In this document: positions 2-27,154 of the stretch, piece by piece
How positions within the stretch are numbered: the stretch's first letter is position 1
Layout of the letters: every line of letters begins with the position of its first letter
Assembly (NCBI GenBank): GCA_964404195.1
Contig: CAYOJC010000001.1
Coordinates: 57,940 to 121,939, forward strand
Direction of reading: 5' to 3'
Origin: an uncultured Syntrophobacteraceae bacterium
GTDB lineage: Bacteria > Desulfobacterota > Binatia > UBA9968
Length of the DNA stretch: 64,000 nucleotides
Notes under the pieces: generated by a model
Told to the model about the DNA's origin: nothing
Databases searched by the model: none
What the model saw: the letters and a program-made list of their open reading frames with translations, nothing else
Position numbers and translations under genes: made by a program

Positions 2-622
2 GCGAAGACGCGCGTGACCGAGGGTCCGCACGGCGAATCGCACGGGTTTTACGGCGATGAAAAAGAGGGGCTCGTCTTCAAAGTCAAATGTGTGACGCAC
101 AGAAAGAATCCGATCCATCAGGGACTGATCTGCAATTATATGGAAGACGGCGGCAAACGCATCACGCGCTCGGCGGTTTTGTGGGGCAAGTTAAAAAGTC
201 TCGGCACGCCCGGCGTGGTCGACGTCCGCTTTCCCGATCCGGGCTGCGGGCGCGAAATCTGCGTCGTCGCCGCCGATATCAAAGAACCGGGGCAGGTGAT
301 GCAGATCGTCGAGACGGTCTGGGGCGTCAACGCCATGGGGCCGAACTGGATCATCGTGGTCGACGCCGACGCCGATCTCGACGACTGGAACGATATTTGG
401 TGGCGCATTTATTCTAGAAGTGAGCCGCACCGCGACGTTTGGATCACGCCGCCGCGCCAGCACGGCGGGCACCAGCCGCTGGTGAAGCACGGCTTCACCT
501 CGCGCATCGCGATCGACGCGACCTCCAAGTTCAAGGGCGTGGAATTTCCCGAAGTGAACGACGTGAGCCGCGAGCTGACGCAGAAAGTCCTGAGACGGTG
601 GTCGGAGTTGGGCCTGGAGTAG
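2..622 (+). CDS. UbiD-family (prFMN-dependent) decarboxylase, C-terminal fragment; the 5' end lies upstream of the window
   Basis: The frame is open from the window edge. The translation aligns with the C-terminal region of the four complete UbiD paralogs in this window (…IVVDADADLDDWNDIWWRIYSRSEP… matches …IVVVDDDIDPTDLNEVIWAIGTRSNP…). Confidence 0.6.
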   Translation, partial: AKTRVTEGPHGESHGFYGDEKEGLVFKVKCVTHRKNPIHQGLICNYMEDGGKRITRSAVLWGKLKSLGTPGVVDVRFPDPGCGREICVVAADIKEPGQVMQIVETVWGVNAMGPNWIIVVDADADLDDWNDIWWRIYSRSEPHRDVWITPPRQHGGHQPLVKHGFTSRIAIDATSKFKGVEFPEVNDVSRELTQKVLRRWSELGLE

Positions 623-775: not shown

Positions 776-861
776 TACTTTTCTTATTTTGGTTGTGGCA
801 TTGCCGCGCTGGGCGCTTCGTGGTGAAAAGAACTTGAACCTGAAAAGTGGGAGACAGTCGA

Positions 862-3114: not shown

Positions 3115-3176
3115 GAGAGTTCGTGCGCGAGTTTCACTTGTCACGACAATGGGACGCAACCCAGGGGGCTTTATGA
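3096..3176 (+). pseudogene. remnant of a UbiD 5' end (MPFQSLREFVREFHL…*) overlapping the XDH copy-1 stop
   Basis: gcatgccgttccaaagtttgagagagt (3092-3118) is 22/27 identical to the true UbiD start at 5749-5775 (gcatgccgttccaaagcctaagagatt; MPFQSLRDYL). Confidence 0.4.
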
Positions 3177-4759: not shown

Positions 4760-5479
4760 ATGCCAAAGCCGCCTGACGAATTCGTCGAAGAGCTTTTGCG
4801 CGGGAGGCTACCCCGTCGCGAGGAACGGCCGACTCGAGCGCTGATCGTTCAGGGAAAGCTCAGCAAAGAACAAGTGAAGCTATGGGTCAAGCAGCTTCAC
4901 TATTATCGCGTCAACGTGCCGCGCAAGGAGCTCTATATCCTGGCCAATTGCCCGATCAAAGAGATCCGGATGGAGCGATTGAAAAAGTATCTTGAAGAGG
5001 AGGACGATCGCGTGATGGGCGGGAAAGCCGGACCTCATGCCGAGCTGTGGGCCCAGTTGGGCGAAGGCCTGGGGATAAGCCGCGCGGAGATGGAAGACTT
5101 CGACGCCATGTGCCCGGAATACCGCCTCCTCGTCGACTCATGGGTCAACTACGCGCGCGATCACACTTGGCTGGGAGGCTCGGCCATGAGCTTCGATGAA
5201 GACGGCGGCACGGGGACCTCGGGCGAAGGAATGAACATGGCGCGGGCCTTGTCCAAATTCTACGGCGTTCCCGATTCGGGGTTGGCACATTTCACGCTCC
5301 ATTCCGAGCTTGACATCGAGCACGGCGCGTCGACCCACGACTTGATCCGAAAATACTCCCTTACGGACGAGCAACAGGAGGGCGTTCGCAACGCGGTCCG
5401 CTTCAAAAGAGCCTTCCATACGATGGAGGACCAGTGCATGCGGATCGCTTGCCGAATCGACCCGCAATTATATGCTTAG
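4760..5479 (+). CDS. PqqC-like (cofactor-independent oxygenase, haem-oxygenase-like fold) protein
   Basis: LSKEQVKLWVKQLHYYRVNVPRKELYILANCP and HAELWAQLGEGLGISRAEM align with the PqqC motifs TREQIQGWVANRFYYQ..IPLKDAAI.ANCP and IEAWLRLGEAVGLSRDDL. An AAAGGAGG RBS is present. No pqqA/B/D/E genes are nearby. Confidence 0.7.
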   Translation: MPKPPDEFVEELLRGRLPRREERPTRALIVQGKLSKEQVKLWVKQLHYYRVNVPRKELYILANCPIKEIRMERLKKYLEEEDDRVMGGKAGPHAELWAQLGEGLGISRAEMEDFDAMCPEYRLLVDSWVNYARDHTWLGGSAMSFDEDGGTGTSGEGMNMARALSKFYGVPDSGLAHFTLHSELDIEHGASTHDLIRKYSLTDEQQEGVRNAVRFKRAFHTMEDQCMRIACRIDPQLYA

Positions 5480-5750: not shown

Positions 5751-7184
5751 ATGCCGTTCCAAAGCCTAAGAGATTACCTCAAGAAGGTCGAAGAGCACGG
5801 CGATCTTCTTAAGATCGACGGCGCGTCCCGCGAGGAGGAGATCGGCGCGCTGGCGGAAATCGTCGCGAGCACGGCCAAGCACCCGATGCTGCTCTTTGAC
5901 AACATCAAAGGATACCCCGCGGGATATCGCGTTTCGGCCAGCACGATGGGCGGCGTGCGCCGGATGGCTCTCGGCCTCGGCTTGGACCCGTCGCTCGCCA
6001 ATGTCGAGCTGGTAAAGGCATGGAAAGAGAAGCTCAAGACGTTCAAGCGGATCGAGCCGCGCGAAGTCGCCGACGGTCCGGTGCGGGAAAATGTTTTCTC
6101 CGGCGAAAAAATTGACTTGCTCAAATTCCCCGCGCCGAAGTGGCACGAACGCGACGGCGGCTACTACATCGGCACCGGCTGCTGCGTGATCACGCGCGAC
6201 CCCGACGATGGCTGGGTCAACATGGGCGTCTATCGCGTCGTGGTCCACGATAAGAAAACTCTCGGGATTTTTATCAACCACATCCAGCACGGCCGGCTCA
6301 TCGTCGAGAAGTACTGGTCGCAAGGAAAAAGTTGCCCGGTGATTATCTCTTTCGGACAAGACCCCGCGCTTTTTCTCGCCGCCGCGCAGCGCGAGCCGTG
6401 GGGCGTGGGCGAGCTCGACGTCGCGGGATGGCTTCGCGGCGAGCCGGTGGAAATTCTGAAAGGCGAGAGGACGGGTCTGCCGATTCCCGCGCACGCGGAG
6501 ATCGTCGTCGAAGGAGAGATCCCTCCGATCGAGAAAGAAGCGCGGCCCGAAGGGCCGTTCGGCGAGCGCACGGGTTACTACGCGACCGGGACGAGAAACG
6601 AGCCGGTCGTCCGCGTGTCGTCGCTGATGCACCGCAACGATCCGATCATCCAGGGTGATCCGCCGCTGAAGCCGGTGCCCGGCATGGACCACTTCGGCAT
6701 CCCGCTGCCCGCGGCGGGTGTGTGGTCGGCGTTGGAATCCGCCGGCATTCAAGACATCCGCGGGGTCTGGCTGCACGGCCCGTTCGCGACGGTGATCTCG
6801 CTCAAGCAGCGCTACGAAGGCCACGCGCGCCAGGCGGCGGCGATCGCGCTCGGCGCGCGCGCCACGGTGCACCTCGGAAGATTCGTCATTCTTGTCGACG
6901 ATGATATTGACCCGTCGGATCTCAGCGACGTCTTCTGGGCGGTCACGACGCGCTGCGATCCGGCGGAGCAAACGGAAGTCTTGAAAGGATTTCCGACGAG
7001 CGGCATCAATCCGCGCGTCGCGCCGGCGGACCGTGAAGAGGGACACTTTGTCTCTTCCAAGATGATCATCGACGCGTGCCGGCCGTACCGTTGGATCAAG
7101 GATTTTCCGGCGACGAACGTCATGAGCCCGGAGCTGAAAACGAAAGTAGCGGAGAAGTGGAAGCGATTGCTGGAGCGGCAGTGA
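5751..7184 (+). CDS. UbiD-family decarboxylase (copy 2)
   Basis: 477 aa. The N-terminus MPFQSLRDYL…LLFDNIKGYPAGYR matches the canonical UbiD PALLFENPKGY region, and the full-length architecture fits the family. Confidence 0.85.
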   Translation: MPFQSLRDYLKKVEEHGDLLKIDGASREEEIGALAEIVASTAKHPMLLFDNIKGYPAGYRVSASTMGGVRRMALGLGLDPSLANVELVKAWKEKLKTFKRIEPREVADGPVRENVFSGEKIDLLKFPAPKWHERDGGYYIGTGCCVITRDPDDGWVNMGVYRVVVHDKKTLGIFINHIQHGRLIVEKYWSQGKSCPVIISFGQDPALFLAAAQREPWGVGELDVAGWLRGEPVEILKGERTGLPIPAHAEIVVEGEIPPIEKEARPEGPFGERTGYYATGTRNEPVVRVSSLMHRNDPIIQGDPPLKPVPGMDHFGIPLPAAGVWSALESAGIQDIRGVWLHGPFATVISLKQRYEGHARQAAAIALGARATVHLGRFVILVDDDIDPSDLSDVFWAVTTRCDPAEQTEVLKGFPTSGINPRVAPADREEGHFVSSKMIIDACRPYRWIKDFPATNVMSPELKTKVAEKWKRLLERQ

Positions 7185-7278
7185 GTTTTCCATGCCGGCG
7201 ACCGTGCCGCGCGAGGCATCGCGTCCGGCTTCAAGGACGAATTATACAAACAAGCCCCGTGAGAAGAATGCAAGGCCA

Positions 7279-9531
7279 ATGGATTTTCTGACGATCGGCC
7301 AGCCGGTCCCGCGCGTCGACGGCCCCGCCAAGGTGAGCGGCGCGTGCGTTTACACGGCCGACGTTCCCGGCGCGGGAACGCTGTGGGGAAAATTTTATCG
7401 CAGCCCGCTGCCGCACGCGCGCATCCTGAACGTCGATACGGGAAAAGCCAAGAAAGTTCCCGGCGTCAAAGCCGTGATCTCCGCCGGCGACGTGTCGCCG
7501 CGGCGCGAGGGCTACACGCTGCAGGACAAGCCGATCTTCGCGCGGAAAAAAGTTTTATATTGCGGGGAAAAGGTCGCGGGAGTCGCGGCCGTCGATAAGG
7601 ACGCGGCGGAAGAGGCCGTCGCGTTGATCGAAGTCGAGTACGAAGAGCTGCCGGCGGTGTTCGATCCGCTCGAGGCGATGAAACCGGAAGCGCCCCTGCT
7701 TCACCCCGACTATGCCTCCTACCTTGGGCCGCCGAGCATGGCGCCGGATCTGAAAAACGTCCAGAGCGTGATGCGCGCCGCCAAAGGCGACACCGCCAGA
7801 GGATTCGCGGAATCGGACGAGATTTTTGAAAACTCTTTTCGCACGCAGATGGTCCACCAGGGCTTCATCGAGCCGCGCGCGTGCCGGGTCGAGATCGACC
7901 GCGACGGACGGATCCAGGTCTGGTTTTGCCATCAATCGAGCTTCAAGGTCCGCCGCTGGATGGCGACGCACCTCGGAATTGCCGAGGAGAAAATCGTCGT
8001 CCATCCGGTCGCGCTCGGCGGCTCGTTCGGCGGCAAAGAAGGCTATGAGGAGGCGCTCTGCACCTATTACCTGGCCGCGGCCGCCGGCAAGCCGGTGAAA
8101 GTGGTGGATAGCTACGCCGAGGAGCTGCTCGACGGCGAGCCGCGCCACGCGGCGGTAATCCGGCTTGGCACCGGCGTGAAGCGGGACGGCCGGCTGTGGG
8201 CGTGGGAGGGAAAGATATTTTACAACGGCGGCGCCTACGCCGCGCGAAAGCCCAGCCCGAAGGCCAACATGAGCGGCACCTTCATGCTGGCGGGCTCGTA
8301 CAACATCCTGCATACGCTCATGGAAGGCTACGCGGTTTACACCAATCAAATACCGTGCGGCTACTTTCGCGCGCCGGGAGAGCCGCAGACGCTCTTCGCC
8401 GTCGAATCACACGTCGACATGATCGCCGAAACCTTGGGCATCGATCCGCTCGAGTTTCGCTTGAAGAACGTGTTGCGCGCGGGAGATACGAGGGCGACGG
8501 GGGAGCCGCTCGCCGATCCGCGCGGCGCGGAAGCGCTCAGCGAGCTGGGAAAAATTTCGGCCTGGAAAAAAACTTCTCTAAAACCGACGCGAGGCCGGAA
8601 GCTCCGCGGGCGCGGGCTCGCCCTCGGCGACCGCCACGTGGGCCACGGCGAGTCCAGCGCCGAGATTTATCTCGAGCGCGACGGCGCGGTGCGCCTCGTC
8701 ACTTCCGTGAGAGATCAGGGCGTCGGCGCTTACACGATGCATCGCCAGGTCGCGGCGGAAACGTTGGGCATCGAGCCGGAGCGCGTTCGGGTCGAGATCA
8801 AAGGGACGGCCGACGGTCCTTACGACGAGGGCGTCCGGGGCGCCCGCGGCGCGCACGTCGAAGGCCGTGCGGTGTTGCGCGCGGCCGAAAACTTAATCGC
8901 ATGTCTCCGAAAACAGGCCGCGGCGTACTGGAGAGTCGACGCCGGCAAGGTCGAGTGGCAAGCGGGCAAGGCGTGGTTGGCGAACGGCCGAAAATCCAAA
9001 AACCTCGGACTTAACGATCTGGCCCGCATGATCGAAGCGCCGCTCAAAGGCTACGGCCATTACAAGGCCGAGAAAAAACCTTCGGTCTATTCCTTTCAGG
9101 CGATCGCCGCAGACGTCGAAGTCGACGCCGAAACCGGCGCAGCGCGCGTCGCGAAGCTCTATTTTACTTACGACGTGACCAAAGTCATCAATCCGGTCAT
9201 TCACCAGGGACAGATCGACGGCGCGATCGTCCAGGGATTGGGCTATTCGTTGATGGAGGAAATGGCCGTGGACGAAGGGCGGGTGCTCACGCTGAGCCTC
9301 GGCGATTACAAGATACCCAACATCAAAGACGTTCCGCCCCTCGTCACTTCTCTGGTGCAAGCCAAAAAAGGGCCCGGACCTTTCGGCGTGAAGGCCGTGG
9401 CGGAAGCGGGCATCAGCATCGTCGCTCCCGCGATCGCCAACGCCGTTTACAACGCGACCGGCGTGAGAATCACGGAGCTGCCGGTCACGGCGGAAAAAAT
9501 TCTCGCCGGTCTGGCGCGTCTTTCTAAATGA
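7279..9531 (+). CDS. xanthine dehydrogenase-family molybdopterin-binding large subunit (copy 2)
   Basis: It is paralogous to 862..3114 (PRVDGPAKVSGACVYTADV…GYFRAPGEPQTLFAVESH). The ATG at 7279 is in frame; the track ORF was extended upstream. Confidence 0.85.
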   Translation: MDFLTIGQPVPRVDGPAKVSGACVYTADVPGAGTLWGKFYRSPLPHARILNVDTGKAKKVPGVKAVISAGDVSPRREGYTLQDKPIFARKKVLYCGEKVAGVAAVDKDAAEEAVALIEVEYEELPAVFDPLEAMKPEAPLLHPDYASYLGPPSMAPDLKNVQSVMRAAKGDTARGFAESDEIFENSFRTQMVHQGFIEPRACRVEIDRDGRIQVWFCHQSSFKVRRWMATHLGIAEEKIVVHPVALGGSFGGKEGYEEALCTYYLAAAAGKPVKVVDSYAEELLDGEPRHAAVIRLGTGVKRDGRLWAWEGKIFYNGGAYAARKPSPKANMSGTFMLAGSYNILHTLMEGYAVYTNQIPCGYFRAPGEPQTLFAVESHVDMIAETLGIDPLEFRLKNVLRAGDTRATGEPLADPRGAEALSELGKISAWKKTSLKPTRGRKLRGRGLALGDRHVGHGESSAEIYLERDGAVRLVTSVRDQGVGAYTMHRQVAAETLGIEPERVRVEIKGTADGPYDEGVRGARGAHVEGRAVLRAAENLIACLRKQAAAYWRVDAGKVEWQAGKAWLANGRKSKNLGLNDLARMIEAPLKGYGHYKAEKKPSVYSFQAIAADVEVDAETGAARVAKLYFTYDVTKVINPVIHQGQIDGAIVQGLGYSLMEEMAVDEGRVLTLSLGDYKIPNIKDVPPLVTSLVQAKKGPGPFGVKAVAEAGISIVAPAIANAVYNATGVRITELPVTAEKILAGLARLSK

Positions 9532-10589
9532 ACATGGCGGTCCTTAAACCCGAAGAGCATGAGCGGATGGTGATGGAGTCGGTCCGCTTCGCCAAGGAAG
9601 AAGCGAAGCGGCGGCAACAGGCACCGGTGCAGATCAAGGCCGAGGAGATCCGCGCGCAGTTCGAAACGAATTCCCATCTCTATCTCGTCGATCCGCGGTT
9701 GGGCTTCAATCACCGGACGTTTCGCTTCTGGATCAACCGCATCCCCGCGGGCGAGGAAGAGGGGATGGGCTGGAAGACGCTCGGCCACCGCCACACGGTC
9801 GAGGCGGTGCTCCACGTGCTGCAAGGAACCGGCCACAGCATCGTCGACGGCGCGCGCTACGACTGGGCGCCGGGCGATTTTATCAGCGTGCCGATGTTTT
9901 CCTGGCACCGCCACGTGAACACCGGCGACGAAGATTTTATTTATCTGGCGGCGACCACCGGCCCGCTGTCGTTGTCTCTCGGATTGGCGGTCTACGAAGA
10001 CGAGCGGTATCCGGACTATTGGGTCTTCGGCCACAAGAGCGAGAGCGCGATGAAGTCGCTGATCCCCGGCGCGGACGACAGCACGCGCGTGCGCACTGCC
10101 GAGGAGGCGTCGCGGGAGCCGCTGAGCCCGACGGACGCCTATTACCGGCAGCACCTGTTGTTTTCCGGCGGCGAGGAGAAGCGCCGCCGCCAAAGCCGGG
10201 TGCTGGTGAAAGGGGCTCAAGTCGATTTCGAAAAGACCGCCATGGGACGCGTCCGTTATGTGATCGATCCGCGGACGGGCTTTCTCATGCGCGTCCTGGG
10301 GACGCTGTTGGCCGAGATCTCTCCGGGAAAACGCTCCGGCGCGCACCGGCATATGTACGAAGAGGTGAATTATGTCCTTTCAGGGCGCGGCTACAGCCTG
10401 ATCGAAGATCGGAGATACGACTGGGCGGCAGGCGACGTTCTTTGTATTCCGGTCTTCGGTTGGCATCAGCACTTCAACACCGGCAAGGAGCCGGCGCGGC
10501 TGTTGGTCCATCACAACCGGCCGCTGATGGAAAATCTGGGCTTCATGCACGTCGAACAAGGCGAAGAAGCAGAGGAGGAATCCTTATGA
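9528..10589 (+). CDS. bicupin dioxygenase, gentisate 1,2-dioxygenase-like
   Basis: Two cupin modules each carry His motifs (GHRHTVEAVLHVLQGTG…SWHRHVN and GAHRHMYEEVNYVLSGRG…GWHQHFN). The start ATG overlaps the XDH stop (ATGA). Confidence 0.7.
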   Translation: MNMAVLKPEEHERMVMESVRFAKEEAKRRQQAPVQIKAEEIRAQFETNSHLYLVDPRLGFNHRTFRFWINRIPAGEEEGMGWKTLGHRHTVEAVLHVLQGTGHSIVDGARYDWAPGDFISVPMFSWHRHVNTGDEDFIYLAATTGPLSLSLGLAVYEDERYPDYWVFGHKSESAMKSLIPGADDSTRVRTAEEASREPLSPTDAYYRQHLLFSGGEEKRRRQSRVLVKGAQVDFEKTAMGRVRYVIDPRTGFLMRVLGTLLAEISPGKRSGAHRHMYEEVNYVLSGRGYSLIEDRRYDWAAGDVLCIPVFGWHQHFNTGKEPARLLVHHNRPLMENLGFMHVEQGEEAEEESL

Positions 10590-11572
10590 GACGGACTCTA
10601 TACGTCGGCTTGCTGGCGTTGTGTTTTCTCCCGCAGCAGGTTCTTGCGGCGGAACGGGCCCTGCGCGTCTCCTATCCGTCTCCCGCCACCGTTTACCTGC
10701 CGCTCTGGGCGGCGAAAGAGGCGGGCTTTTTCGCCAAGCACAAGCTGGCCGTAGAACTGGTCCATGTGGGATCGTCGCCCATATCCCTCTCGGCTTTCCT
10801 GGCCGGTGAGATCGATATCCTGGGCGGCGGCGGCTCGGCCGTACCCAACGCGTTTCTTCAGGGTTTCCGCGATCTCCAGTTTTTCGCCTCCATGAACAAC
10901 AAGTTTGTCTTCTCGATCTATGCCCATCCGTCCATTTCAACCGCGGCGGAGCTTCGCGGCAAGAAGATCGGCGTGACGCGCCTGGGCGGCACGATGCACT
11001 TTGCCACTCGGTATTACCTCAAAGGGACGGGACTCGATCCTTACAAAGATGTCACGCTGGTGCAGGTCGGGAGGGCCGAAGACATCGTCACGGCGCTAGC
11101 GGGAGGGACCGTCGATGCGGGCACCATGTCTTTTCCGTTCGATCTCAAGACCAAGGAGTTGGGATACCGCGAGCTTGCCGATCTGAGCCAGAGCGGCGCG
11201 CGCTACGCGTCGTCCTCCTTTCTCGGCAAAAAACAGTTTCTTTTGGACAACCGTCTGCGCTTGGAAAGTTTTGTCAAGGCGATGATCGAGGCGATCCATT
11301 TCGTCAAGAGCCGGCCCCAGGAGGCAATAAAAATCCTCTCCCGCTATACCCGCCTTACCGACGTCAATACTCTCAAGAGCACCTTAGACCTTCACGTCGC
11401 AAAGATCTGGCCGCGAGTGCCTGAGATACAGCCGGAGGATCTCAAGCTGGTACTCGAAGAGCTGGGCGAAAGAAACCCCCGCGCGCGCGAGATCGCGCCG
11501 GCCGAGCTGATCCACGACCGGATCGTGAGGGATGTCGTCCAATCGGGCTTTGTCGAGCAGTTGTACAGATAG
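10586..11572 (+). CDS. periplasmic substrate-binding protein, NMT1/THI5-like (NitT/TauT SsuA/TauA family), copy 1
   Basis: Signal peptide MRRTLYVGLLALCFLPQQVLAA, then LRVSYPSPATVYLPLWAAKEAGFF. GAGGAGG RBS. The start overlaps the bicupin stop (ATGA). The track ORF 10019.. is an antisense-free upstream extension. Confidence 0.75.
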   Translation: MRRTLYVGLLALCFLPQQVLAAERALRVSYPSPATVYLPLWAAKEAGFFAKHKLAVELVHVGSSPISLSAFLAGEIDILGGGGSAVPNAFLQGFRDLQFFASMNNKFVFSIYAHPSISTAAELRGKKIGVTRLGGTMHFATRYYLKGTGLDPYKDVTLVQVGRAEDIVTALAGGTVDAGTMSFPFDLKTKELGYRELADLSQSGARYASSSFLGKKQFLLDNRLRLESFVKAMIEAIHFVKSRPQEAIKILSRYTRLTDVNTLKSTLDLHVAKIWPRVPEIQPEDLKLVLEELGERNPRAREIAPAELIHDRIVRDVVQSGFVEQLYR

Positions 11573-11595
11573 AAGGGGGTCGTGAAAAGCTGGCC

Positions 11596-13038
11596 ATGAA
11601 CACGGATCTGCGAGACTGGATCGTTGCGGTACAAGCCACCGGTGAGATCAAGACGCTCAGCGGCGCAGACTGGAACAGAGAGATCGGCACGCTGGTTGAG
11701 CTCAACGCCAAGGCGCGTGGGCCGGCCCTGCTCTTCGACGAGATCAGGGGCTACCCGGCGGGCTTCAGGCTGCTGGCCGGGGCGATGTCGAGCGCCAGAA
11801 GACTCGCCCTGACGCTTGGGCTTCCGCCCGATCTCGATGGGCTCGAACTCATCCGTTGCATGAAAGACAGCATGCGCGGCTGGAACGACCGCCTGGGTGA
11901 TTTTCCGCCGGTAGAGGTTCAAAGCGGCGTCGTCTTTGAAAACGTGGATGCCGAGGAAAAGACCAATCTGTTAAAGTTTCCATCCCCGCTTTGGCACGAA
12001 GAGGACGGCGGGCGCTATATCGGCACAGGCTCGGTTGCCATCATGCGAGACCCGGAAAGCGGCTGGATCAATCTAGGCACCTACAGGATCATGGTTCACG
12101 ATGAAAAGAGCGCCGGCATCTTCATGGCACCCGGCCACCATGGCGGAATCATCATGAAGAAATACTGGAAAGCGGGCAAACCCTGCCCGATTGCCGTCTC
12201 CGCCGGCCATCACCCGCTGATTTTTTTTGCCGGATCTTCTTCGCTTCCCGCGGAGACTTCGGAATACAACTACGTCGGTTCCATTCTGAAGGAGTCGGTG
12301 CCGGTCGTGATGGGACCCGTCACCGGGCTTCCGATTCCGGCCTACAGCGAAGTCGCATTCGAAGGCCACCTTTTTCCCGACGAAATGAAAACCGAGGGAA
12401 TATTCGGCGAATGGCCCGGCTACTACGTGAGCGAGGCCAAGCCGGAGCCGGTCATCCGGGTCAAGGCCGTGTATCACCGAAACGATCCGATTCTGCTCGG
12501 CGCCTGGCCCGGAAAACCACCCCACGACAGCACTTACCGAAACTCGATCATAAAGTCTGCAAGCCTTTGGGAGCTTCTCGAACGAGCGCGCATTCATGGC
12601 GTCACCGGCGTTTATCGCCCGGAGGCCGGGAGCGCAAATCTTTTGACGATCGTCAGGATCAAGCAGCTCTACGACGGCCACGCCCGCCAGGTGGGAACCG
12701 TAGCTTCGCAGCTTCTCCATCCGTCACATTCCACCCGCTATGTCATCGTCGTCGATGACGGCCTCGACATCACCAATCTTGAGGAGGTGATGTGGGCGGT
12801 CTGCACGCGCAGCGACCCGGCGCGCTCGATCGCCATCATTGACCAGACCCACGCCAACGCTCTCGACCCGATGGTTCGCTCACGCTATGACAAAGCGGCC
12901 GGCAACACGGCTTCCTGCGCGATCATCGACGCCTGCTGGCCCTACCGCGCGCTTGCCAAAGTCCCCAAGGTCGCAGAGTCGAGCGAGGAGTTTAAAAAAC
13001 AGGTCAAAGCCAAGTGGAGAGGAAAACTGTCTCTGTAA
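11596..13038 (+). CDS. UbiD-family decarboxylase (copy 3)
   Basis: 480 aa. GPALLFDEIRGYPAGFR and a UbiD-like C-terminus (VIVVDDGLDITNLEEVMWAV). Confidence 0.85.
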   Translation: MNTDLRDWIVAVQATGEIKTLSGADWNREIGTLVELNAKARGPALLFDEIRGYPAGFRLLAGAMSSARRLALTLGLPPDLDGLELIRCMKDSMRGWNDRLGDFPPVEVQSGVVFENVDAEEKTNLLKFPSPLWHEEDGGRYIGTGSVAIMRDPESGWINLGTYRIMVHDEKSAGIFMAPGHHGGIIMKKYWKAGKPCPIAVSAGHHPLIFFAGSSSLPAETSEYNYVGSILKESVPVVMGPVTGLPIPAYSEVAFEGHLFPDEMKTEGIFGEWPGYYVSEAKPEPVIRVKAVYHRNDPILLGAWPGKPPHDSTYRNSIIKSASLWELLERARIHGVTGVYRPEAGSANLLTIVRIKQLYDGHARQVGTVASQLLHPSHSTRYVIVVDDGLDITNLEEVMWAVCTRSDPARSIAIIDQTHANALDPMVRSRYDKAAGNTASCAIIDACWPYRALAKVPKVAESSEEFKKQVKAKWRGKLSL

Positions 13039-13052
13039 GCCGTTCTTTTTTA

Positions 13053-14246
13053 TCAGGTATGTTCTTTCTGGAGGAACCAATCGGTGGGGATCTCGTGGCC
13101 CAGCTCCAGGCGACGCGCGCCGGCGAGAATCCGCGCGCCGGTCGCCGCATGCTGGATGCCGAGGCCGATGTTGTTACAGTGAAAGGTGATCTCATCGTCC
13201 TTTCTCCTACCCTTGATTTTTCCCGTCAGCAGCTCGCCGAGCTCGTGCATCGAGGCCCAGTCGAGCTGCCGCGATTTTTTGTTGATGTTGCTCCCGACCG
13301 TATCCATCTTCTTCCCCATGACGAAGTCGCGCACCAGATCGCTCCCGCCGGAGAAGGGGCGCGCGTTGACGACGATGAGATCGCTGATCTTAAAGCTCGC
13401 CGCGTCCGCCTCGACGATGTTGATGCTGCCGAAATGCGCGCCTTCCTCGATCCAGCGCGCGCGAAAGACCGGCGTCAGAGAGGTCGTGGCGCTCAACACA
13501 ATTTCCGAACCGGGGCAAACGTCTTGCGGCTTATCGACTGGAACGATCTCGATTCCCGTGGCCCGCTCCATGCTGGCGGCGAAGGCTTTGCGGTGGCCGG
13601 CGTTGGGGCTGAACACTTTGACGCGCTTAAGCTTTCTCACCAGAGCGGCCGCCATCACCTGGCCCTCGGCCTGGAAACCAGTGCCAAAAAGGCCCAGCGT
13701 CTGAGCCTCCTTTCGCGCCAGGTGCTTGATCCCGACGGCGGAAGTCGCCGCCACGCGGTTTCTCTGCAGCGGTCCGAGCGGCAGAATGGCGAGCAGCTCG
13801 CCGCTTACGATATCGAAGAGAAGCATCATGCCCGTGTAGCGCCAGCCCGATCCAAGTGGCAGCTTTACGCTCCGCTTGACGCCGTTGACGACGGGGTTGG
13901 TGTCCGTCGTCGAGTCGATTTTCAGCGCCATGATGCCGCACTTCGGATAGCCGCCCGGAATGGTCTTGAGCCGATAGTTCAGCTCCTCGGTTCGCTTGGC
14001 GGCGCGAACCCACAGAGGGGACTGATGCGGATCGGCGTCGACCGGGAGATCGCGCAGCAGTTTCTTTGCCTTTCGGCTGACCTCAGCGGAAGCGCCGTAT
14101 TTGAGAAGCGGAATGCCGGTCTCGGTGCGCGGCGCGTTGATCGCCGCTCCTTTGCCCAACTCCGTGAAGGCCTCTTCCATCGCCTCGATGTAGCCCTTGA
14201 GATCCAGGGCCCGCAGGACCTCTTCCGTATTCAAGACCAGCGTCAT
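13053..14246 (-). CDS. ornithine cyclodeaminase/mu-crystallin family protein
   Basis: Rossmann motif LGLFGTGFQAEGQV and OCD-family architecture (~397 aa). It is the only minus-strand gene in the first 25 kb. The overlapping + ORF 13014..14390 is an R-rich artefact. Confidence 0.75.
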   Translation of the reverse strand: MTLVLNTEEVLRALDLKGYIEAMEEAFTELGKGAAINAPRTETGIPLLKYGASAEVSRKAKKLLRDLPVDADPHQSPLWVRAAKRTEELNYRLKTIPGGYPKCGIMALKIDSTTDTNPVVNGVKRSVKLPLGSGWRYTGMMLLFDIVSGELLAILPLGPLQRNRVAATSAVGIKHLARKEAQTLGLFGTGFQAEGQVMAAALVRKLKRVKVFSPNAGHRKAFAASMERATGIEIVPVDKPQDVCPGSEIVLSATTSLTPVFRARWIEEGAHFGSINIVEADAASFKISDLIVVNARPFSGGSDLVRDFVMGKKMDTVGSNINKKSRQLDWASMHELGELLTGKIKGRRKDDEITFHCNNIGLGIQHAATGARILAGARRLELGHEIPTDWFLQKEHT

Positions 14247-14352
14247 TTTGCCCCCGCCGGACGATTTTCCCGGTTTAAGATTTTTTCGTTTTCGCCGACC
14301 GGCTTTTTTATAGGCCAGCCTGGTCGGAAAGACAACCGATCTATTGACCGAT

Positions 14353-14428
14353 GCCGGCGCGGCTGTTGGTCCATCACAACCGGCCGCTGATGGAAAATCT
14401 GGGATTCATGCACGTCGAACAAGGCGAA
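14353..14428 (+). repeat. 76-bp remnant of the bicupin 3' end (75/76 identical to 10491-10566)
   Basis: Direct comparison of gccggcgcggctgttggtccatcacaaccggccgctgatggaaaatctggg[c/a]ttcatgcacgtcgaacaaggcgaa. It lies immediately upstream of NMT1-like SBP copy 2, in the same position as the intact bicupin relative to copy 1. Confidence 0.8.
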
Positions 14429-14435
14429 TCGAGCG

Positions 14436-15431
14436 ATGATTAAAATAACATTGTTTTTGCTCTACATGATTTTTCTACTCGCGCGCGCGGATATCTCCCT
14501 CGCGCAGAAGCGGCCGCTGCGGGCTTCTTATCCGGCGCCGACCACCGTGTATCTCCCTCTTTGGGTCGCCAAGGACGCAGGTTTTTTCACCAAGCAGGGC
14601 GTCGATGTCGAGCTGGTTCACGTCGGTTCTTCTCCGATCGCCATGGCCGCGTTTTTGGCCGGGGAGATCGACATCCTGGGCGGCGGCGGCTCGAGCGGCC
14701 CCAATGCCTATCTCAGGGGACAGCGCGACCTGGCGTTTTTCGTTTCGATGAACAACAAATTTGTCTTTTCCATCTATGGCCCACCGACGATGGCGAATCT
14801 GTCCGCCGTGCGCGGCAAGCGCATCGGCGTGACGCGCTTCGGCGGGACCATGGACTTCGCCACGCGCCATTTCCTGCGGCTCAGCGGGCTCGATCCCGCG
14901 CGCGACGTGGCGATGGTCCAGGTCGGCAGGGTGCAGGATATTCTGTCGGCGATGGCGGCGGGCTCGGTGGACGTCGGCACGATGGCGTTTCCCTACGATA
15001 TTAAAGCGAGGGAGAGCGGCTATCGCGAGCTCGCCGATCTCGCGCAGAGCGGAGCGCGTTACGCTTCGTCGTCTTTTTTGGGGAAGCGGCAATTTCTCGC
15101 GCAGCAGAAGCCCCGCATCGAGTCGTTCGTGCGTGGACTGATCGAGGCGATTCACTTTATCCGGACGCGGCGCGACGAAGGCATAAAAATTCTCGCGCGC
15201 TATACGCGCATGTCGGATATGAACATCCTGCAGCAGACCTACGATTTCCACAGCAGGGTGATCTGGCCCCGGGTGCCGGAGCTGCAGCCCGAGGATCTGA
15301 AGCTCGTCCTGGAAGAACTGGCGGACGCCAACCCCAAGGCGCGCGAGATCGATCCCGCGGAGCTGATTTACGGCGCCGCAATAAAAGACGTGGTCGCGAG
15401 CGGATTCGTCGAGAAGCTTTATGCGCGGTGA
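14436..15431 (+). CDS. NMT1/THI5-like periplasmic substrate-binding protein, copy 2
   Basis: Paralog of 10586..11572 (LRASYPAPTTVYLPLWVAKDAGFF…GGGGSSGPNAY). Confidence 0.75.
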   Translation: MIKITLFLLYMIFLLARADISLAQKRPLRASYPAPTTVYLPLWVAKDAGFFTKQGVDVELVHVGSSPIAMAAFLAGEIDILGGGGSSGPNAYLRGQRDLAFFVSMNNKFVFSIYGPPTMANLSAVRGKRIGVTRFGGTMDFATRHFLRLSGLDPARDVAMVQVGRVQDILSAMAAGSVDVGTMAFPYDIKARESGYRELADLAQSGARYASSSFLGKRQFLAQQKPRIESFVRGLIEAIHFIRTRRDEGIKILARYTRMSDMNILQQTYDFHSRVIWPRVPELQPEDLKLVLEELADANPKAREIDPAELIYGAAIKDVVASGFVEKLYAR

Positions 15432-16430
15432 GTTAAAGAAGGGCCCGCGAATCGCCTGGCTGCTTCTCTTGATCTGGATCGGGCCGATTCCAGCGAACGG
15501 CGCCGTTGCGCCGGCGCCGCTGCGGGTTTCGTACCCGGCGCCGACGGCTTCTCAGCTTCCTCTCTGGGTGGCCAAAGAATGGAAATTTTTCGACAAACAC
15601 GGCGTAGGCGTCGAGCTCGTCTACGTCGGCTCGTCGTCCATCGCCATCGCCGCGCTCTTAGCGGGAATCTGGACGTCGTCGCCGGCGGCGGGGTCGGCGG
15701 CATCGCCTCTTACCTGCAGGGCTATCGCGACCTGGCGCTCTTCGCCAGCTTGAACAACCGCTTGAATTTTTTCGTCTACGCGCATCCCTCGATCACAGAT
15801 CCGTCCGGACTTCGCGGCAAGCGGTTCGGCGTCAGCCGCTTCGGCGGCGTCGGCGATTTCGCGGCGCGTTATTTCTTGAAGCGCTCGGGTCTCGATCCGC
15901 GTAAGGACCTGGCCATGATCCAGGTGGGCAGCCAGTTGGAATTGACTCCGGCGCTGGCGCGCGGCGCCGTCGACGCGGGCACCGTATCGGTGCCGCAGAA
16001 CTTTGCAGCCAAGAAGCTGGGCTATCGAGAGCTGGCCGACTTGACGCAGAGCGGCGCGCGATACGCCTCGAACGCTTTTTTGGCCAAGAAGCAATTCCTC
16101 ATCGACAACAGAGCGCGCATGGAAACTTTCCTGCGGGCCGTGATCGAATCGATCCATTTCATTAAAACGCGCCGGCCGGAGGCTTTGAGCGTCCTCGCCC
16201 GTTATACGAGAACGAACGACACGGAAGCTTTGGGTTTGATTTACGACGAATACGTCCACAAGGTCTGGCCGCAGATCCCTGGAATCGAGCCCGAAGATTT
16301 GAAGGCGGTCTTTGAACAGCTGGGGGAAACCAATCCTAAAGCGCTGGAAGTCAATCCCGCCGAGCTGGTGTACGCGCCGCTCATGGATAATGTGGTCAAG
16401 TCGGGTTTTGTGAAGGAACTTTACCGCTGA
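15421..16430 (+). pseudogene. NMT1/THI5-like substrate-binding protein, copy 3, disrupted by a -1 frameshift near 15666
   Basis: Frame 1 (15421..15753) carries the N-terminus and frame 3 (15579..16430) the rest. Restoring one A in gggaa(a)tctg gives LLAGNLDVVAGGGVGGIASYLQGYRDL, which is collinear with the paralogs. This may be a true pseudogene or a homopolymer sequencing error. Confidence 0.6.
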
Positions 16431-17434
16431 TGGGAAGAACGCGAGTCATCGCCGCGATCATTTTTGCTTGGATCGCGATTGCCGCGGGCGGCGCGAGCGG
16501 CGCCGCTGCGCCGGCTTCTCTGCGCATCGCCTACCCGGCGCCGACCGCTTCTTTTCTTCCGCTCTGGACGGCCCAGGACGCAGGGTTTTTCAAGAAGCAC
16601 GATCTCGCGGTGGAAGTGATCCGGGTCGGATCCTCGACCCGCGGCATGGCCGCTTTGCTCGCGGGCCAGATCGACGTGCTCGCGGGCGGCGGCACCGGCG
16701 GCCTGGTGGCGCAGTTGCAAGGCTTCACCGATCTCGCGGTCTTCGGCACCAACGTGCATACTTGGGTGTTTTCGGTCTACACGGCGCCGTCGATCAAAGA
16801 CGTCGCGCAGCTCCGCGGCAAGAAGTTGGGCGTGACCCGGTTCGGCGGGACTATGGATTTCGCGGCGCGCCACTTTCTCAAAGGACAGGGGTTAGAGCCG
16901 GGGAAGGACGTCGTTCTGGTTCAGCTCGGCAGCGCGGCGGACATCGTCACCGCTTTGGCCAACGGAGTCGTCGATTCCGGGATGATGTCGGTCCCTTATG
17001 TGTTCGTCGCAAAAAGGTTGGGACTCCGGGAGCTGACCGATCTCTCCCAAACCGGGATACGCTACGCGCAGGCGGCGCTGGTTGCGAAGAGAAGTTTTCT
17101 GCGCGACAAACGGGAAGTTGTGACTCGGTTTATCAAGTCGCAGATCGAGGCGATTCATTTTTTAAAGACGCGTCCGGCCGACGGCATGCGCGTCCTGGGC
17201 CGCTATACGCGAACCGATGACGAGGAAATTTTGAAGCAGGCGTACCATTACCACGTGGACCGGCTGCTCTCGCGCGTTCCCGACATTCATCCGGACGATG
17301 TCAGATTATTGTTGGAGGAAGCCGCGCTCACCAATCTCAAAGCCAAGGGCGCGAATCCGCAGGATTTCATCGACGAGGGACCGGTGCGCGAAGTCGTGCG
17401 CTCCGGCTTCGTCGAGCAGCTTTACAAGAAATAA
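16430..17434 (+). CDS. NMT1/THI5-like periplasmic substrate-binding protein, copy 4
   Basis: LRIAYPAPTASFLPLWTAQDAGFF. The start overlaps the copy-3 stop (TGATG). Confidence 0.75.
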   Translation: MGRTRVIAAIIFAWIAIAAGGASGAAAPASLRIAYPAPTASFLPLWTAQDAGFFKKHDLAVEVIRVGSSTRGMAALLAGQIDVLAGGGTGGLVAQLQGFTDLAVFGTNVHTWVFSVYTAPSIKDVAQLRGKKLGVTRFGGTMDFAARHFLKGQGLEPGKDVVLVQLGSAADIVTALANGVVDSGMMSVPYVFVAKRLGLRELTDLSQTGIRYAQAALVAKRSFLRDKREVVTRFIKSQIEAIHFLKTRPADGMRVLGRYTRTDDEEILKQAYHYHVDRLLSRVPDIHPDDVRLLLEEAALTNLKAKGANPQDFIDEGPVREVVRSGFVEQLYKK

Positions 17435-17465
17435 CTTTGCGCGGGTAGTTTCCGAGGAGGAGACC

Positions 17466-18896
17466 ATGGATGACTTGAGAGCTTGGTTGAAAGAGATAGA
17501 CGCGCTGGGTCAACTGAAGCAGGTGAACGGCGCGTCAACGAACCTGGAGATCGGCGTGATCACGGAGATCAACGGACAGCGGAGGGGCCCGGCGCTTTTG
17601 TTCGACAACATACCGGGCTTTCAAAAAGGTTTCAGGATTTTGTCCGGTTCGAGCCTCAACGCCAAGAGGCTCGCCTTGACGCTCGGCTTCCGCGACATCG
17701 ACACCGACCGGCAGCTCATCTCGCGCCTCGAAGGAAAGATGAGCGAGTTCGAGCGCAAGGCGCGGGATTATCCCACGAAGGACGTTTCGAGCGGCTCCGT
17801 CTTGCAGAATCGACTTTCCGAGCAGCAAGTCGATCTGCTGAAATTTCCCGCGCCCAAGTGGCACGAGCACGACGGCGGCAACTATCTCGGCACGGGCTGC
17901 ATCGTCGTCACCAAGGATCCCGACAGCGGCAGGATCAACTTCGGGTCGTACCGGCTGATGGTGCAGGATAAAAAAACCGTCACGCTGCACATTTCTCCGG
18001 CGCATCACGGCGCGATCAACGTGAGAAAATATCACGAGCGCGGGGAAGCCGCGCCGGTCGCCGTTTCGTTAGGCCACCATCCGCTCTATCTCATCATCTC
18101 GGGCATGGGGATTTCCTACGGCATTTCGGAATACGAATATTTCGGCGCGGTGACGGGGGAATCCGCTGCGGTGATTCGCGGTGAGGCGACGGGATTGCCG
18201 ATTCCGGCGGCGAGCGAGATCGCCTTCGAAGGTTTCTGTCCTCCCGGCGAGTTGCGCGAAGAGGGGCCTTTCGGCGAATATACCGGCTACTATGCATCGG
18301 GCCGGGGCAAAGAGCCGATCATCGACGTCAAGGCGGTCTACCACAGGGACGATCCGATTATCCTCGGCGTGCCGCCGGGACGTCCGCCGCACGACTACTC
18401 TTACGCCAGCGTGCTGATGAAATCCGTCAACGTCAAAGAGTCGCTCGTCAAAGACGGCATCCCGGACGTCAAAGGCGTGTGGTTTCACGAGGCGGCCGGT
18501 GTGAATTTTTTCGGCGTCGTGTCCATACGCCAGAGATATCCCGGTCACGCGCGCCAGGCGGGCCACGTCGCGGCGCAGTGCCAGGCGGCGGGAAATCACC
18601 TGGGCCGCTACATCGTCGTCGTGGACGACGATATCGATCCGACGGATCTGAATGAAGTCATCTGGGCGATCGGAACCAGGTCCAATCCGGAAAAGGATAT
18701 CGACTTGATCCGCAACACCTACACGAGCCCGCTCGATCCGATCTATTCCAGGGAGAAAAAAGGCGGCTTCGGCACTCGCGCGGTCATCGATGCCTGCAAG
18801 CCCTACGATTGGATCAACGAATTTCCCAAGGTCGCGTCGACGAGCGCGGAGGAAAGAAAAAAAGTGCTGACGAAGTGGAAACAGCTCTTCGAATAG
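17466..18896 (+). CDS. UbiD-family decarboxylase (copy 4)
   Basis: MDDLRAW…GPALLFDNIPGFQKGFR. GAGGAGGA RBS. The track ORF 17298.. is an upstream extension. Confidence 0.85.
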   Translation: MDDLRAWLKEIDALGQLKQVNGASTNLEIGVITEINGQRRGPALLFDNIPGFQKGFRILSGSSLNAKRLALTLGFRDIDTDRQLISRLEGKMSEFERKARDYPTKDVSSGSVLQNRLSEQQVDLLKFPAPKWHEHDGGNYLGTGCIVVTKDPDSGRINFGSYRLMVQDKKTVTLHISPAHHGAINVRKYHERGEAAPVAVSLGHHPLYLIISGMGISYGISEYEYFGAVTGESAAVIRGEATGLPIPAASEIAFEGFCPPGELREEGPFGEYTGYYASGRGKEPIIDVKAVYHRDDPIILGVPPGRPPHDYSYASVLMKSVNVKESLVKDGIPDVKGVWFHEAAGVNFFGVVSIRQRYPGHARQAGHVAAQCQAAGNHLGRYIVVVDDDIDPTDLNEVIWAIGTRSNPEKDIDLIRNTYTSPLDPIYSREKKGGFGTRAVIDACKPYDWINEFPKVASTSAEERKKVLTKWKQLFE

Positions 18897-19093
18897 ACTC
18901 TGAGAGTGTGTGAGAAAATTCGTTCATGGTTCGACAAGCTCACCACGAGCGGAATAGCGTAGATGGTAATTCAAGCACTTATCCGTTTGTCCTGAGCTTG
19001 TTGAAGGGCGATCGGCAATTTTTTCACACATTCTGAGAGGATCTCCTATGGACCGGGAAACGATCGGTCGCATTATCGTGAGGCCATTCTTTT

Positions 19094-20309: not shown

Positions 20310-21860
20310 ATGATGCACGTTCTCGTCGCCGTTTCGACATTTTTATTTTTCGCCGCTTCCGCTCCCGCCGCGGAAGCGCCCCGCTATGGAGGGCGGCTGG
20401 TTTTCGGCATTCGCAGCGATATCTCCTCCCTGAATCCTTTTCTCCGCACCAGCTCCACCAACTACTACGTGCGCGGTCTGGCCTACGAGGCGCTCCTGGA
20501 TTTCGACAAGACTGGAAAATTGGTGCCATCGCTGGCGCAGTCCTGGAGTGTATCTCCCGACGGCAAAAGCTACACCTTCAAGCTCAGGACAGGCGTAAGA
20601 TTCCATAACGGAAAGGAATTGTCCGCCGAGGATGTGAAGTGGAGCGCGGATTATGCGCTCGACCCCAAGAACGCGGCATCGGGGTTTACGATCTTGAAAC
20701 ACCTGCAAGCGGTCAACGTCAAGGACAGCCTCACCGTAGAGTTCGTTCTGAAGCAGCCGATGGGCGCATTTCTCAATCTGCTCGCGACGGTCCGCGCCTT
20801 TCCGATTATTCCGAAGGAGTCGCTCCCGGAAGGAACGGCCAGGGTGCTGAGTCCCCCTCCCGGCACGGGCCCTTTTATATTCAAGGAACACAAGCCGGCG
20901 CGGGAAATGGTCTTCGCGCGCAACAAAAACTACTGGCAAAAAGGTCTCCCCTACCTGGACGAGCTGGTGCTGAAGACGGTGGTGGAGGACCAGGTCCGTT
21001 TCATCTCCGTGCGCAGCGGCGATCTGGATATGATCGAGAGAACTCCCTACGCCGCTATCCGAAAGCTGCTCACGGGCGGATCTCCCGACCTCAAGACTAC
21101 CGAGGTCAAATACGCCGGCTATCGCCGCCTGCTTTTCAACGTCGCCGATCCGCCGTTCAACAATCTCAAATTGCGCCAGGCGGTGCTCTATGCCCTGGAC
21201 AAAAGGAAGTATATCGAAGGGGCGTTCTGGGGCTTTGGACAGCCGGTGGATCAGGTGTTTCCCCAGGAGAGTCCCTGGAAGGTGAAGCTCGCTGAGATTA
21301 AACCGGATCCGGCCAAGGCGAGGGCGCTGTTGAAAGAGGCCGGCCTCGGGCCGGATGTGGAAGTCGAGCTTTCGGGGCTAAAGTCGGAGGAAGAAGAGCT
21401 GCAAGTCATTCAACAGCAATTGGTCGGCGCCGGCTTCAAGGCAAAAGTTTTAGTCCTGGAAAGAGGCGCGCGGGGGTCGCGCGAGAGCCGGGGCGATTTC
21501 ATGATGGTGCTCAGCGGAAGCGATATCCCCAATGACCCGGAAGAGGAGTACCCGAGCGAGTTCGGGTGCGCCGAGGAAGAGGTCAAGGCCAAAAATCGGA
21601 CCGAGAACACGTCCGGCTACTGCAACCCGGAGGTGGACCGGCTGCTGGCGGAGGCGTCGAAGACCATGGATCATAAAAAACGCTACGAGGTTTTTGCTCG
21701 GGTCACCCGCATCCTTCACGAGGAAATACCGGGCATCCCTTTGGTCTTCGTGCCGCGCTTTTTCACCTACCAAAATAAAGTGAGAGGATTCGAGACCGAC
21801 TTCGACGGCCGCTTCAATTTGACTACGGCCGGTTTTTCCCGGGTATGGATAGCGCGGTGA
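20310..21860 (+). CDS. ABC transporter substrate-binding protein, family 5 (DppA-like), copy 2
   Basis: MMHVLVAVSTFLFFAASAPAAEAPRYGGRLVFGIRSDISSLNPF. GGAG RBS. Confidence 0.85.
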   Translation: MMHVLVAVSTFLFFAASAPAAEAPRYGGRLVFGIRSDISSLNPFLRTSSTNYYVRGLAYEALLDFDKTGKLVPSLAQSWSVSPDGKSYTFKLRTGVRFHNGKELSAEDVKWSADYALDPKNAASGFTILKHLQAVNVKDSLTVEFVLKQPMGAFLNLLATVRAFPIIPKESLPEGTARVLSPPPGTGPFIFKEHKPAREMVFARNKNYWQKGLPYLDELVLKTVVEDQVRFISVRSGDLDMIERTPYAAIRKLLTGGSPDLKTTEVKYAGYRRLLFNVADPPFNNLKLRQAVLYALDKRKYIEGAFWGFGQPVDQVFPQESPWKVKLAEIKPDPAKARALLKEAGLGPDVEVELSGLKSEEEELQVIQQQLVGAGFKAKVLVLERGARGSRESRGDFMMVLSGSDIPNDPEEEYPSEFGCAEEEVKAKNRTENTSGYCNPEVDRLLAEASKTMDHKKRYEVFARVTRILHEEIPGIPLVFVPRFFTYQNKVRGFETDFDGRFNLTTAGFSRVWIAR

Positions 21861-27011: not shown

Positions 27012-27043
27012 AAAAAATCTCCTGAAAGGAACTTGTCGGCATC

Positions 27044-27150: not shown

Positions 27151-27154
27151 GTTG

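Follow-up and report, generated by a model that had tools for sequence, protein, structure and literature searches.

The window analysed here is a 64,000-nucleotide stretch of contig CAYOJC010000001.1 from an uncultured Syntrophobacteraceae bacterium (lineage Binatia). Its first 34 kb are a mosaic of recurring gene types, here called the island, and contain four genes for substrate-binding proteins (SBPs) of the NMT1 type, the type of the NitT/TauT ATP-binding cassette (ABC) family. A preliminary description, made from the letters alone, had proposed four NMT1/THI5-like binding-protein open reading frames (ORFs) in tandem. The four ORFs were found: all of them passed the Pfam models NMT1 (42–64 bits, cut-off 20.5) and NMT1_2 (31–62 bits, cut-off 24.7). 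Their arrangement is 1 + 3 and not a row of four, as a gene for a UbiD-family decarboxylase, dependent on prenylated flavin mononucleotide (prFMN), and an ornithine cyclodeaminase/mu-crystallin (OCD) gene on the opposite strand part copy 1 from copies 2–4. The four are paralogs, as had been proposed, with a pairwise identity range (46–65%) wider than the 50–60% given at first; copies 1 and 2 are the closest pair, at 65%. The reported stop/start overlaps were also found, 4 nt (ATGA) between the preceding bicupin gene and copy 1, 11 nt between copies 2 and 3, and 1 nt between copies 3 and 4. The bicupin matched the NCBIfam models AminoSalDhMabB and gentisate_1_2, both under cut-off. The UbiD after copy 4 (UbiD #4) is 46% identical to the one after copy 1 (UbiD #3). 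Feature coordinates are collected in Table 1.

Table 1. Features of the SBP locus and its surroundings (positions in the window)
Feature	Position	Strand	Description
NMT1-type SBP copy 1	10586–11572	+	328 aa; signal peptide MRRTLYVGLLALCFLPQQVLA/AE; NMT1_2 61.9 bits, NMT1 58.7 bits (Pfam)
NMT1-type SBP copy 2	14436–15431	+	331 aa; Pfam; same orthogroup as copy 1
NMT1-type SBP copy 3	15421–16430	+	frameshifted; ORFs 15421–15753 and 15579–16430
NMT1-type SBP copy 4	16430–17434	+	334 aa; Pfam NMT1 63.8 bits
Bicupin, gentisate/5-aminosalicylate 1,2-dioxygenase-like	9528–10589	+	Pfam Cupin_2 twice; PDB 3bu7 gentisate dioxygenase, 96 bits
UbiD-family (prFMN) decarboxylase #3, orthogroup U4	11596–13038	+	Pfam UbiD_N/UbiD/UbiD_C; 23 nt 3' of copy 1
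OCD gene	13053–14246	-	Pfam OCD_Mu_crystall, 119.6 bits; breaks the SBP series
UbiD-family decarboxylase #4, orthogroup U3	17463–18896	+	Pfam; 28 nt 3' of copy 4
UbiD-family decarboxylase #2, orthogroup U2	5751–7184	+	Pfam; family-5 SBP and TenA/PqqC-like genes 5', then a molybdenum-cofactor subunit
UbiD genes in the window	14–622 (partial), 5751–7184, 11596–13038, 17463–18896		Pfam
Molybdenum hydroxylase large subunit #2 (XDH/CoxL family)	7192–9531	+	Pfam; best PDB match 4-hydroxybenzoyl-CoA reductase alpha, 274 bits
Molybdenum hydroxylase large-subunit paralogs	847–3114, 23141–25390		Pfam
Family-5 SBP	20310–21860	+	Pfam SBP_bac_5, 270–286 bits across the four family-5 SBPs
Other family-5 SBP ORFs	2912–4732 (+), 25467–27428 (-), 28590–30179 (+)		SBP_bac_5 (Pfam)
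DppB/DppC/DppD/DppF-type permeases and ATPases	30255–34049	+	Pfam BPD_transp_1(+N), OppC_N, ABC_tran, oligo_HPY
76-nt direct repeat, left	10490–10565	+	3' end of the bicupin gene
76-nt direct repeat, right	14353–14428	+	fossil bicupin 3' end, non-coding, upstream of copy 2

The four copies carry export signals and have the fold of NitT/TauT-type SBPs. Each starts with a basic and hydrophobic segment with an AXA-like end, directly before a conserved LRVSYPA strand. The same pattern was observed in 46 relatives from other genomes. The signal peptides reported for the four copies are thus borne out, and they are of the Sec type. The mature proteins contain no Cys. The AlphaFold2 model of copy 1 (pLDDT 89.2, pTM 0.84) is a two-lobe type II periplasmic binding protein by Foldseek (E 1e-14 to 6e-20, TM about 0.69–0.75). 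Its matches were 3qsl, ThiY (3ix1), a thiamine binder, TauA, SsuA, CmpA and PqqT at 13–21% identity, and the model also resembles the SBP-fold enzymes Thi5 and DszB. At the sequence level only 3qsl reached E = 3e-10. Pfam matches at E ≤ 0.01 were NMT1, NMT1_2 and Phosphonate-bd; copy 4 also matched OpuAC weakly, and copy 2 had one chance match under the threshold. The TctC-type domain of tripartite tricarboxylate transporter (TTT, Bug) SBPs was not among them. Every NCBIfam score stayed far under its cut-off (SsuA_fam 75.8 bits against 163.5; PRK11553 26–28 bits against 299), so that equivalog membership failed. These proteins thus have the fold, the domains and the export signal of NitT/TauT-type SBPs, and lack the operon partners and the equivalog-level scores.

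Clustering gave about nine SBP orthogroups and four UbiD orthogroups. Across five SBP orthogroups S63, S64, G81, G82, R132, G134, G135, Q160, G162, P184, R206 and Y207 were invariant. Orthogroup-specific positions (60–65, 80–85, 102–108, 136–137, 163–164, 181–186 and 205–210) interleave with them. Both sets map to beta-alpha loops and hinge strands of the copy 1 model, which line the cleft in this fold. The conserved residues may plausibly form a common anchor, perhaps for a carboxylate, surrounded by variable walls.

The preliminary description overlooked the genomic context: the SBP genes are parts of cupin–SBP–UbiD catabolic modules conserved across Binatia, in uncultured soil bacteria. Neighbours were counted for 52 NMT1 ORFs from 15 non-redundant loci. 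Next downstream came another NMT1 gene in 24 cases, a UbiD gene in 15 and a family-5 SBP gene in 5; upstream there was an NMT1 gene in 24 cases and a cupin gene in 13. The repeated unit is cupin, one or more NMT1 genes and UbiD, tightly spaced or overlapping, and the NMT1 runs reach four or five paralogs per module (L013–L015). In every case the subfamily was found within an island of this kind, with PhdA-like UbiDs, bicupins, molybdenum hydroxylase large subunits and family-5 SBPs. Such gene mixes come from metagenome-assembled genomes (MAGs) with the labels Candidatus Binatia, Acidiferrales, Verrucomicrobiia or 'Deltaproteobacteria'.

The pairing between SBP and UbiD orthogroups is stable. 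SBPs of the copy 4 type were followed by a U3 UbiD in 6/6 loci and those of the copy 3 type in 4/4. Orthogroups OG5, OG3 and OG1 were followed by U1 in 7/7, 4/4 and 8/9, respectively, and copy 1-type SBPs directly precede U4 in the window and in L002. The best solved relative of UbiD #2, #3 and #4 is 7PDA, with 431, 347 and 331 bits, respectively. 7PDA is PhdA, the phenazine-1-carboxylate decarboxylase of Mycobacterium fortuitum (PMC10850782).

No TauB/TauC-type gene was found in the window, as had been stated before. Pfam placed BPD_transp_1 and ABC_tran domains only in the DppBCDF genes; the scan covered candidate ORFs of at least 200 aa (the longest per stretch) and gap ORFs, to the exclusion of shorter ORFs overlapping matched genes. 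Phmmer searches agreed. With E. coli TauB and TauC as queries against every ORF of at least 60 aa in the window and 35 loci, TauB matched only DppD/F and one ATPase in L027, and TauC matched only a partial permease in L027, which served as a positive control for the method. DppBCDF is the sole binding-protein-dependent importer in the window, also as described before. Any implication that it lacks binding proteins of its own is wrong, as four family-5 SBPs, which are its natural partners, are encoded in the window.

Related loci gave the same result. About 18 genome loci had no NitT/TauT permease or ATPase gene beside this NMT1 subfamily. The metagenome set, 79 loci with 394 kb in total, holds 177 ORFs or ORF fragments of the NMT1 type, 50 cupins, 42 UbiDs, 19 molybdenum-cofactor subunits and 12 family-5 SBPs, and no ABC ATPase or TauC-type permease. 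TauB/TauC was absent from every one of about 94 related loci with flanks of up to 10 kb. When about 115 loci were scanned by hydropathy for membrane proteins that recur, only Dpp-type permeases, located at some island borders (L015, L016, L024 and L086), and sporadic major facilitator superfamily proteins came up. Since about 94 loci lack TauB/TauC, the orphan state is a property of the whole NMT1 subfamily and not an effect of the window's ends. The SBPs are true orphans.

These observations suggest that the NMT1 SBPs are periplasmic receptors for (hetero)aromatic carboxylates used by the neighbouring decarboxylases, with the membrane components encoded elsewhere. We put the probability of this reading at roughly 0.55. 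The four Sec-exported NitT/TauT SBPs (NMT1, cluster F) would be the capture components of catabolic modules rather than a self-contained transporter. In each module a bicupin dioxygenase comes first, then one to five NMT1 SBPs and last a PhdA-like UbiD (prFMN) decarboxylase. Each SBP would bind one aromatic or N-heteroaromatic carboxylic acid, the substrate of the adjacent decarboxylase, and would hand it to distant membrane components common to many SBPs, most likely a single NitT/TauT-type permease/ATPase pair. A design of many specificity subunits on one shared core may also apply to the four family-5 SBPs with one DppBCDF and to the three molybdenum large subunits.

Several points weigh against the receptor reading. 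No permease partner was identified in the window or the related loci, and the shared distal NitT/TauT permease is something we infer, as are the ligand class and the carboxylate anchor. The ligands are predicted for proteins that share 21% identity or less with characterised SBPs and have NCBIfam scores far under cut-off. The proposed substrate class rests on the PhdA-like UbiD neighbours (331–431 bits), a similarity that does not fix specificity. Signal peptides were called by eye and with a hydropathy heuristic rather than a trained predictor, and pocket positions were taken from secondary structure rather than from coordinates.

The SBPs may instead have a non-transport role in the periplasm, as ligand sensors, as buffers of toxic redox-active aromatic acids or as SBP-fold enzymes. 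The absence of a linked permease in about 94 loci would fit such a role. Sensing has been proposed for orphan TTT SBPs (PMC5994714; also PMC11113362), and the SBP-fold enzymes DszB and Thi5 are among the structural neighbours of copy 1. However, sensor kinase or chemoreceptor genes do not recur in the islands, where the only regulator seen is of the cytoplasmic GntR/FCD type. The proteins have no conserved catalytic motif and no Cys in their mature part, and their genes lie close to, or overlap, cytoplasmic catabolic genes, an arrangement that fits substrate supply. We consider a non-transport role unlikely.

A further alternative is that the NMT1 SBPs deliver to the island's DppBCDF, a cross-family pairing of SBP and permease. 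A Dpp-type system is the only such importer in the window and the only permease type recurring at island borders. Yet that permease already has four family-5 SBPs in the window, and we know of no cluster-F SBP demonstrated to work with a PepT-family permease. An NMT1-like gene directly 5' of DppB in L015 and L016 was considered as proof of Dpp use and rejected: it belongs to another family (P0121–P0240), follows a split thiamine pyrophosphate (TPP)-dependent enzyme and encodes no signal peptide, and in L032–L035 a gene of this type precedes a family-5 SBP gene, not DppB. Delivery to DppBCDF is thus improbable. Equally slim are the chances of the broader idea that no NitT/TauT permease is used at all and that the SBPs feed the Dpp-type permease or an unrecognised partner. 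If true, it would mean a plug-in array in which SBPs of NMT1 and family 5 (in relatives also of SBP_bac_1/6) share one translocator, and that translocator would import phenazine-like heteroaromatic acids.

The rejected gene belongs to a 329-aa NMT1/THI5-like family outside the window, found at L016:1398-2477(-), L032:9433-10422 and L034:1205-2194 and linked to the window's source contig through protein P0146. Its members always come after a split TPP-dependent enzyme and are followed by a family-5 SBP gene or DppB. As they have no signal peptide, they are presumably cytoplasmic, and the family may be an SBP-fold enzyme.

Copy 3 is frameshifted, as was stated before. A single net -1 frameshift splits it; with one base added, the gene reads through as a 336-aa protein free of further stops. 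In the window the reading frame ends early, at 15751–15753, and the downstream ORF lacks a signal peptide. The NCBI gene call for copy 3 on the source contig is a 226-aa fragment. The preliminary description placed a single-base deletion in a GGGAAAT run at 15663–15668. The loss of one base held, and its site did not: the letters there are GGGAAT, and the base lost is a C between 15659 and 15660 (CTCTT(C)AGCGGGAAT). Orthologs read CTCTTCAGCGGCAAT (LFSGN), and the window reads CTCTT-AGCGGGAAT. Run SRR30681685 yielded a Logan contig, L037, that matches window positions 14571–18944 at 99.7% identity. The two sequences are separated by 12 substitutions and a single indel, the extra C of L037 at 15659/15660, and the 336-aa gene of L037 is intact. 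Because this C is the only indel between the two and orthologs also have it, the lesion is the loss of a lone C, outside any homopolymer.

The deletion was also found in independent data. A Logan contig of SRR6868923 (L001), which occurs in 2 samples, matches the window at 100% and shares its deletion, and L038 (SRR30681686) carries the identical deletion on an L037-like single-nucleotide polymorphism (SNP) background. It is thus present in at least three sequencing runs on two SNP backgrounds, which, with the loss of a lone C, disposes of the homopolymer error offered as one explanation. The 90% cluster of copy 3 contains intact 336–337-aa forms on 12 contigs and the truncated 283-aa product on 3. 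In L039 (JGI Ga0210377_10002773; 98.7% identical to the window), which represents a sister strain, copies 3 and 4 are fused into one gene (L039:8848-9861) that corresponds to about 15421–17434 of the window. The fusion arose by unequal crossover near 15505/16505; it joins the copy 3 signal peptide to the copy 4 mature domain, and the copy 3 mature domain is lost. Copy 3 is a pseudogene, as its frame is broken relative to intact orthologs and alleles in reproducible data. The deletion is a real segregating allele, with intact, frameshifted and recombination-deleted alleles in one population, and the suggested decay in progress is borne out. Measured against the L004 ortholog, the dN/dS of repaired copy 3 is 0.13, no higher than that of its neighbours (0.13–0.21; copy 2 0.21), which argues that the inactivation is recent. 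We also rejected programmed frameshifting at G GGA AT: the site does not form a slippery heptamer, the frame is unbroken in orthologs and sister alleles, and the deletion lies upstream.

Similar lesions were found in other genomes. The copy 4 ortholog of L003 (11996–12987) has a -1 frameshift (CAGGGC), and its 99.7%-identical counterpart in L004 is intact. An NMT1 paralog of L008 (4375–5397) has a nonsense codon at LLAN*IDVL, further frameshifts and a truncation affect those of L010 (4744–5765) and L006 (12255–13113), and L003, L004 and L006 contain fragments of molybdenum-cofactor subunits and bicupins. These islands are rich in pseudogenes, and their SBPs undergo birth-and-death turnover. 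Given these independent lesions, the decay of copy 3 is part of that general turnover.

Modules are also gained. The two 76-nt direct repeats match at 75/76 nt and bracket the block of copy 1, UbiD #3 and OCD. In L004 the bicupin still lies directly 5' of the copy 2 ortholog, and the order in L002 is a copy 1-type SBP, U4, an OCD remnant and a copy 4-type SBP. The repeats, the L004 junction and the L002 order together indicate that copy 1 arrived as a module with its UbiD and is not a fresh duplication of copy 2. The repeats are the footprint of a recent modular insertion.

The copy 3 alleles also bear on another explanation. In it the genes belong to an ordinary ABC transporter for sulfonate, nitrate or taurine, with its permease and ATPase encoded just beyond the window's ends, copy 3 is intact and its frameshift is a sequencing error. 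The Pfam NMT1 matches, the similarity to SsuA_fam and the existence of intact copy 3 alleles speak for it. Against it, the SsuA_fam score is 76 bits against a 163.5 cut-off, TauB/TauC is absent from all of the about 94 loci, and the lone-C deletion recurs in at least three runs on two SNP backgrounds. To the left, as seen in L032, a contig sharing a protein with the window's source contig, the island runs on with a GntR/FCD regulator, a glyoxalase, a luciferase-like monooxygenase, a cupin and two further NMT1 SBPs; to the right it ends in the Dpp and mobile-element genes. This explanation is largely refuted and very improbable.

The suggestion that the genes encode THI5/NMT1-like biosynthetic enzymes or ThiY-like SBPs for pyrimidine salvage in thiamine metabolism has next to no chance. 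Structure comparison does place Thi5 and ThiY near the top, and TenA/PqqC-like genes occur in the island, but these genes adjoin family-5 SBPs and not NMT1 SBPs, no Thi5 or ThiY sequence match was found by phmmer at E ≤ 0.001, no TPP riboswitch or any other Rfam family and, besides Dpp, no thiXZ-type permease/ATPase was found in the window, and the signal peptides and Cys-free mature proteins do not fit Thi5, which is cytoplasmic and needs a conserved Cys-rich active-site motif.

The rest of the island contains four cupin or bicupin genes in all and one TenA/PqqC-like gene. The latter (TenA/Haem_oxygenase_2/PqqC-like, 4760–5479) scored 76 bits with the PqqC model, under cut-off, and the order family-5 SBP, TenA-like gene and U2-type UbiD recurs in L003–L006 and L008–L012. 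The molybdenum-cofactor subunits are closest to 4-hydroxybenzoyl-CoA reductase alpha and N-heterocycle hydroxylases. No gene for an Fe-S or flavin adenine dinucleotide (FAD) subunit of these hydroxylases was found in the island, where positions 1–34 kb leave no gap above 300 nt. Among the small gap ORFs there was no UbiX, CoxS-like or TauB/C gene; only a glyoxalase-fold protein was found. Like the SBPs, the molybdenum large subunits appear to need partners encoded elsewhere. In related loci, too, genes for Fe-S and FAD partners of these large subunits are missing.

L005 and L006, from Acidiferrales and another MAG, have an SBP of a third family (SBP_bac_1/6/8/11), whose gene (L005:7899-8876 and L006:8951-9982) lies between the UbiD/molybdenum-cofactor genes and an NMT1 SBP gene, indicating that binding proteins of three structural classes occur together in the islands. 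An IS91-family Y2 transposase gene (36212–37387, minus strand) and a phage-type integrase gene (37403–38239, minus strand) mark the island's right border; a DUF429 gene and one unassigned ORF lie between them and the Dpp genes. Farther right, a lone NMT1_3 (TAXI-like) binding-protein gene at 46808–47776 has no adjacent permease gene, and a glyoxalase-fold gene (46132–46629) lies upstream of it. Three large genes of the nonribosomal peptide synthetase type at 50375–59525 (A-T-C-A-T, A-T and A-T) appear unrelated to the island.

As biocatalysts, UbiD/prFMN (de)carboxylases are in demand, most of them without a known substrate. In the island each UbiD orthogroup is accompanied by an exported SBP of its own, and ligand screening of these small, soluble SBPs would offer a direct route to UbiD substrates, reaching four uncharacterised PhdA-like decarboxylases and a whole catabolic island of the uncultured class Binatia. 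Copy 3 provides a clean natural snapshot of paralog loss in one population.

Compared with the NitT/TauT SBPs SsuA, TauA, ThiY and PqqT, the island proteins share the cluster-F fold, Pfam NMT1/NMT1_2 matches above gathering threshold and export. They differ in having at most 21% identity and scores under the NCBIfam cut-offs. In the loci examined, TauB/TauC-type partner genes were never alongside, and the SBP genes are set in cupin–SBP–UbiD modules. o-Phthalate is taken up by SBP-dependent ABC systems in Burkholderia and by PatDABC in Rhodococcus (PMC13040137). The likeness is SBP-dependent uptake of aromatic carboxylates tied to catabolic genes; those systems encode SBP, permease and ATPase together, whereas the island has only the SBPs.

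Similar to the case of the PhdA system of M. fortuitum, the flanking UbiDs are PhdA-like, 7PDA being their best solved relative (331–431 bits). A difference is that each island has four UbiD orthogroups with no UbiX gene in the window, and that the substrate here is only predicted. Literature searches found no account linking PhdA-like UbiDs with periplasmic SBPs, bicupins or molybdenum-cofactor subunits, and none of an orphan logic for NMT1-type SBPs, PhdA-like UbiD modules or Binatia.

The closest parallel in organization is TphC and the TTT (Bug) family. The tphC gene lies inside a terephthalate catabolic operon, with tpiBA elsewhere (PMC8556258), and lineage-specific expansion has left most Bug/TTT SBPs orphan (PMC5994714). 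As in the island, an SBP gene stands in an aromatic-acid catabolic operon; in the TTT case the membrane parts are elsewhere and shared. The island SBPs differ in having the NMT1 fold and no TctC-type domain, presumably an ABC rather than a TTT partner, and hosts in Binatia and Acidiferrales, not Proteobacteria. The resemblance is thus one of genomic logic, not ancestry. This logic is already known from the TTT family, and the island would extend the orphan SBP in a catabolic operon to the NitT/TauT ABC family.

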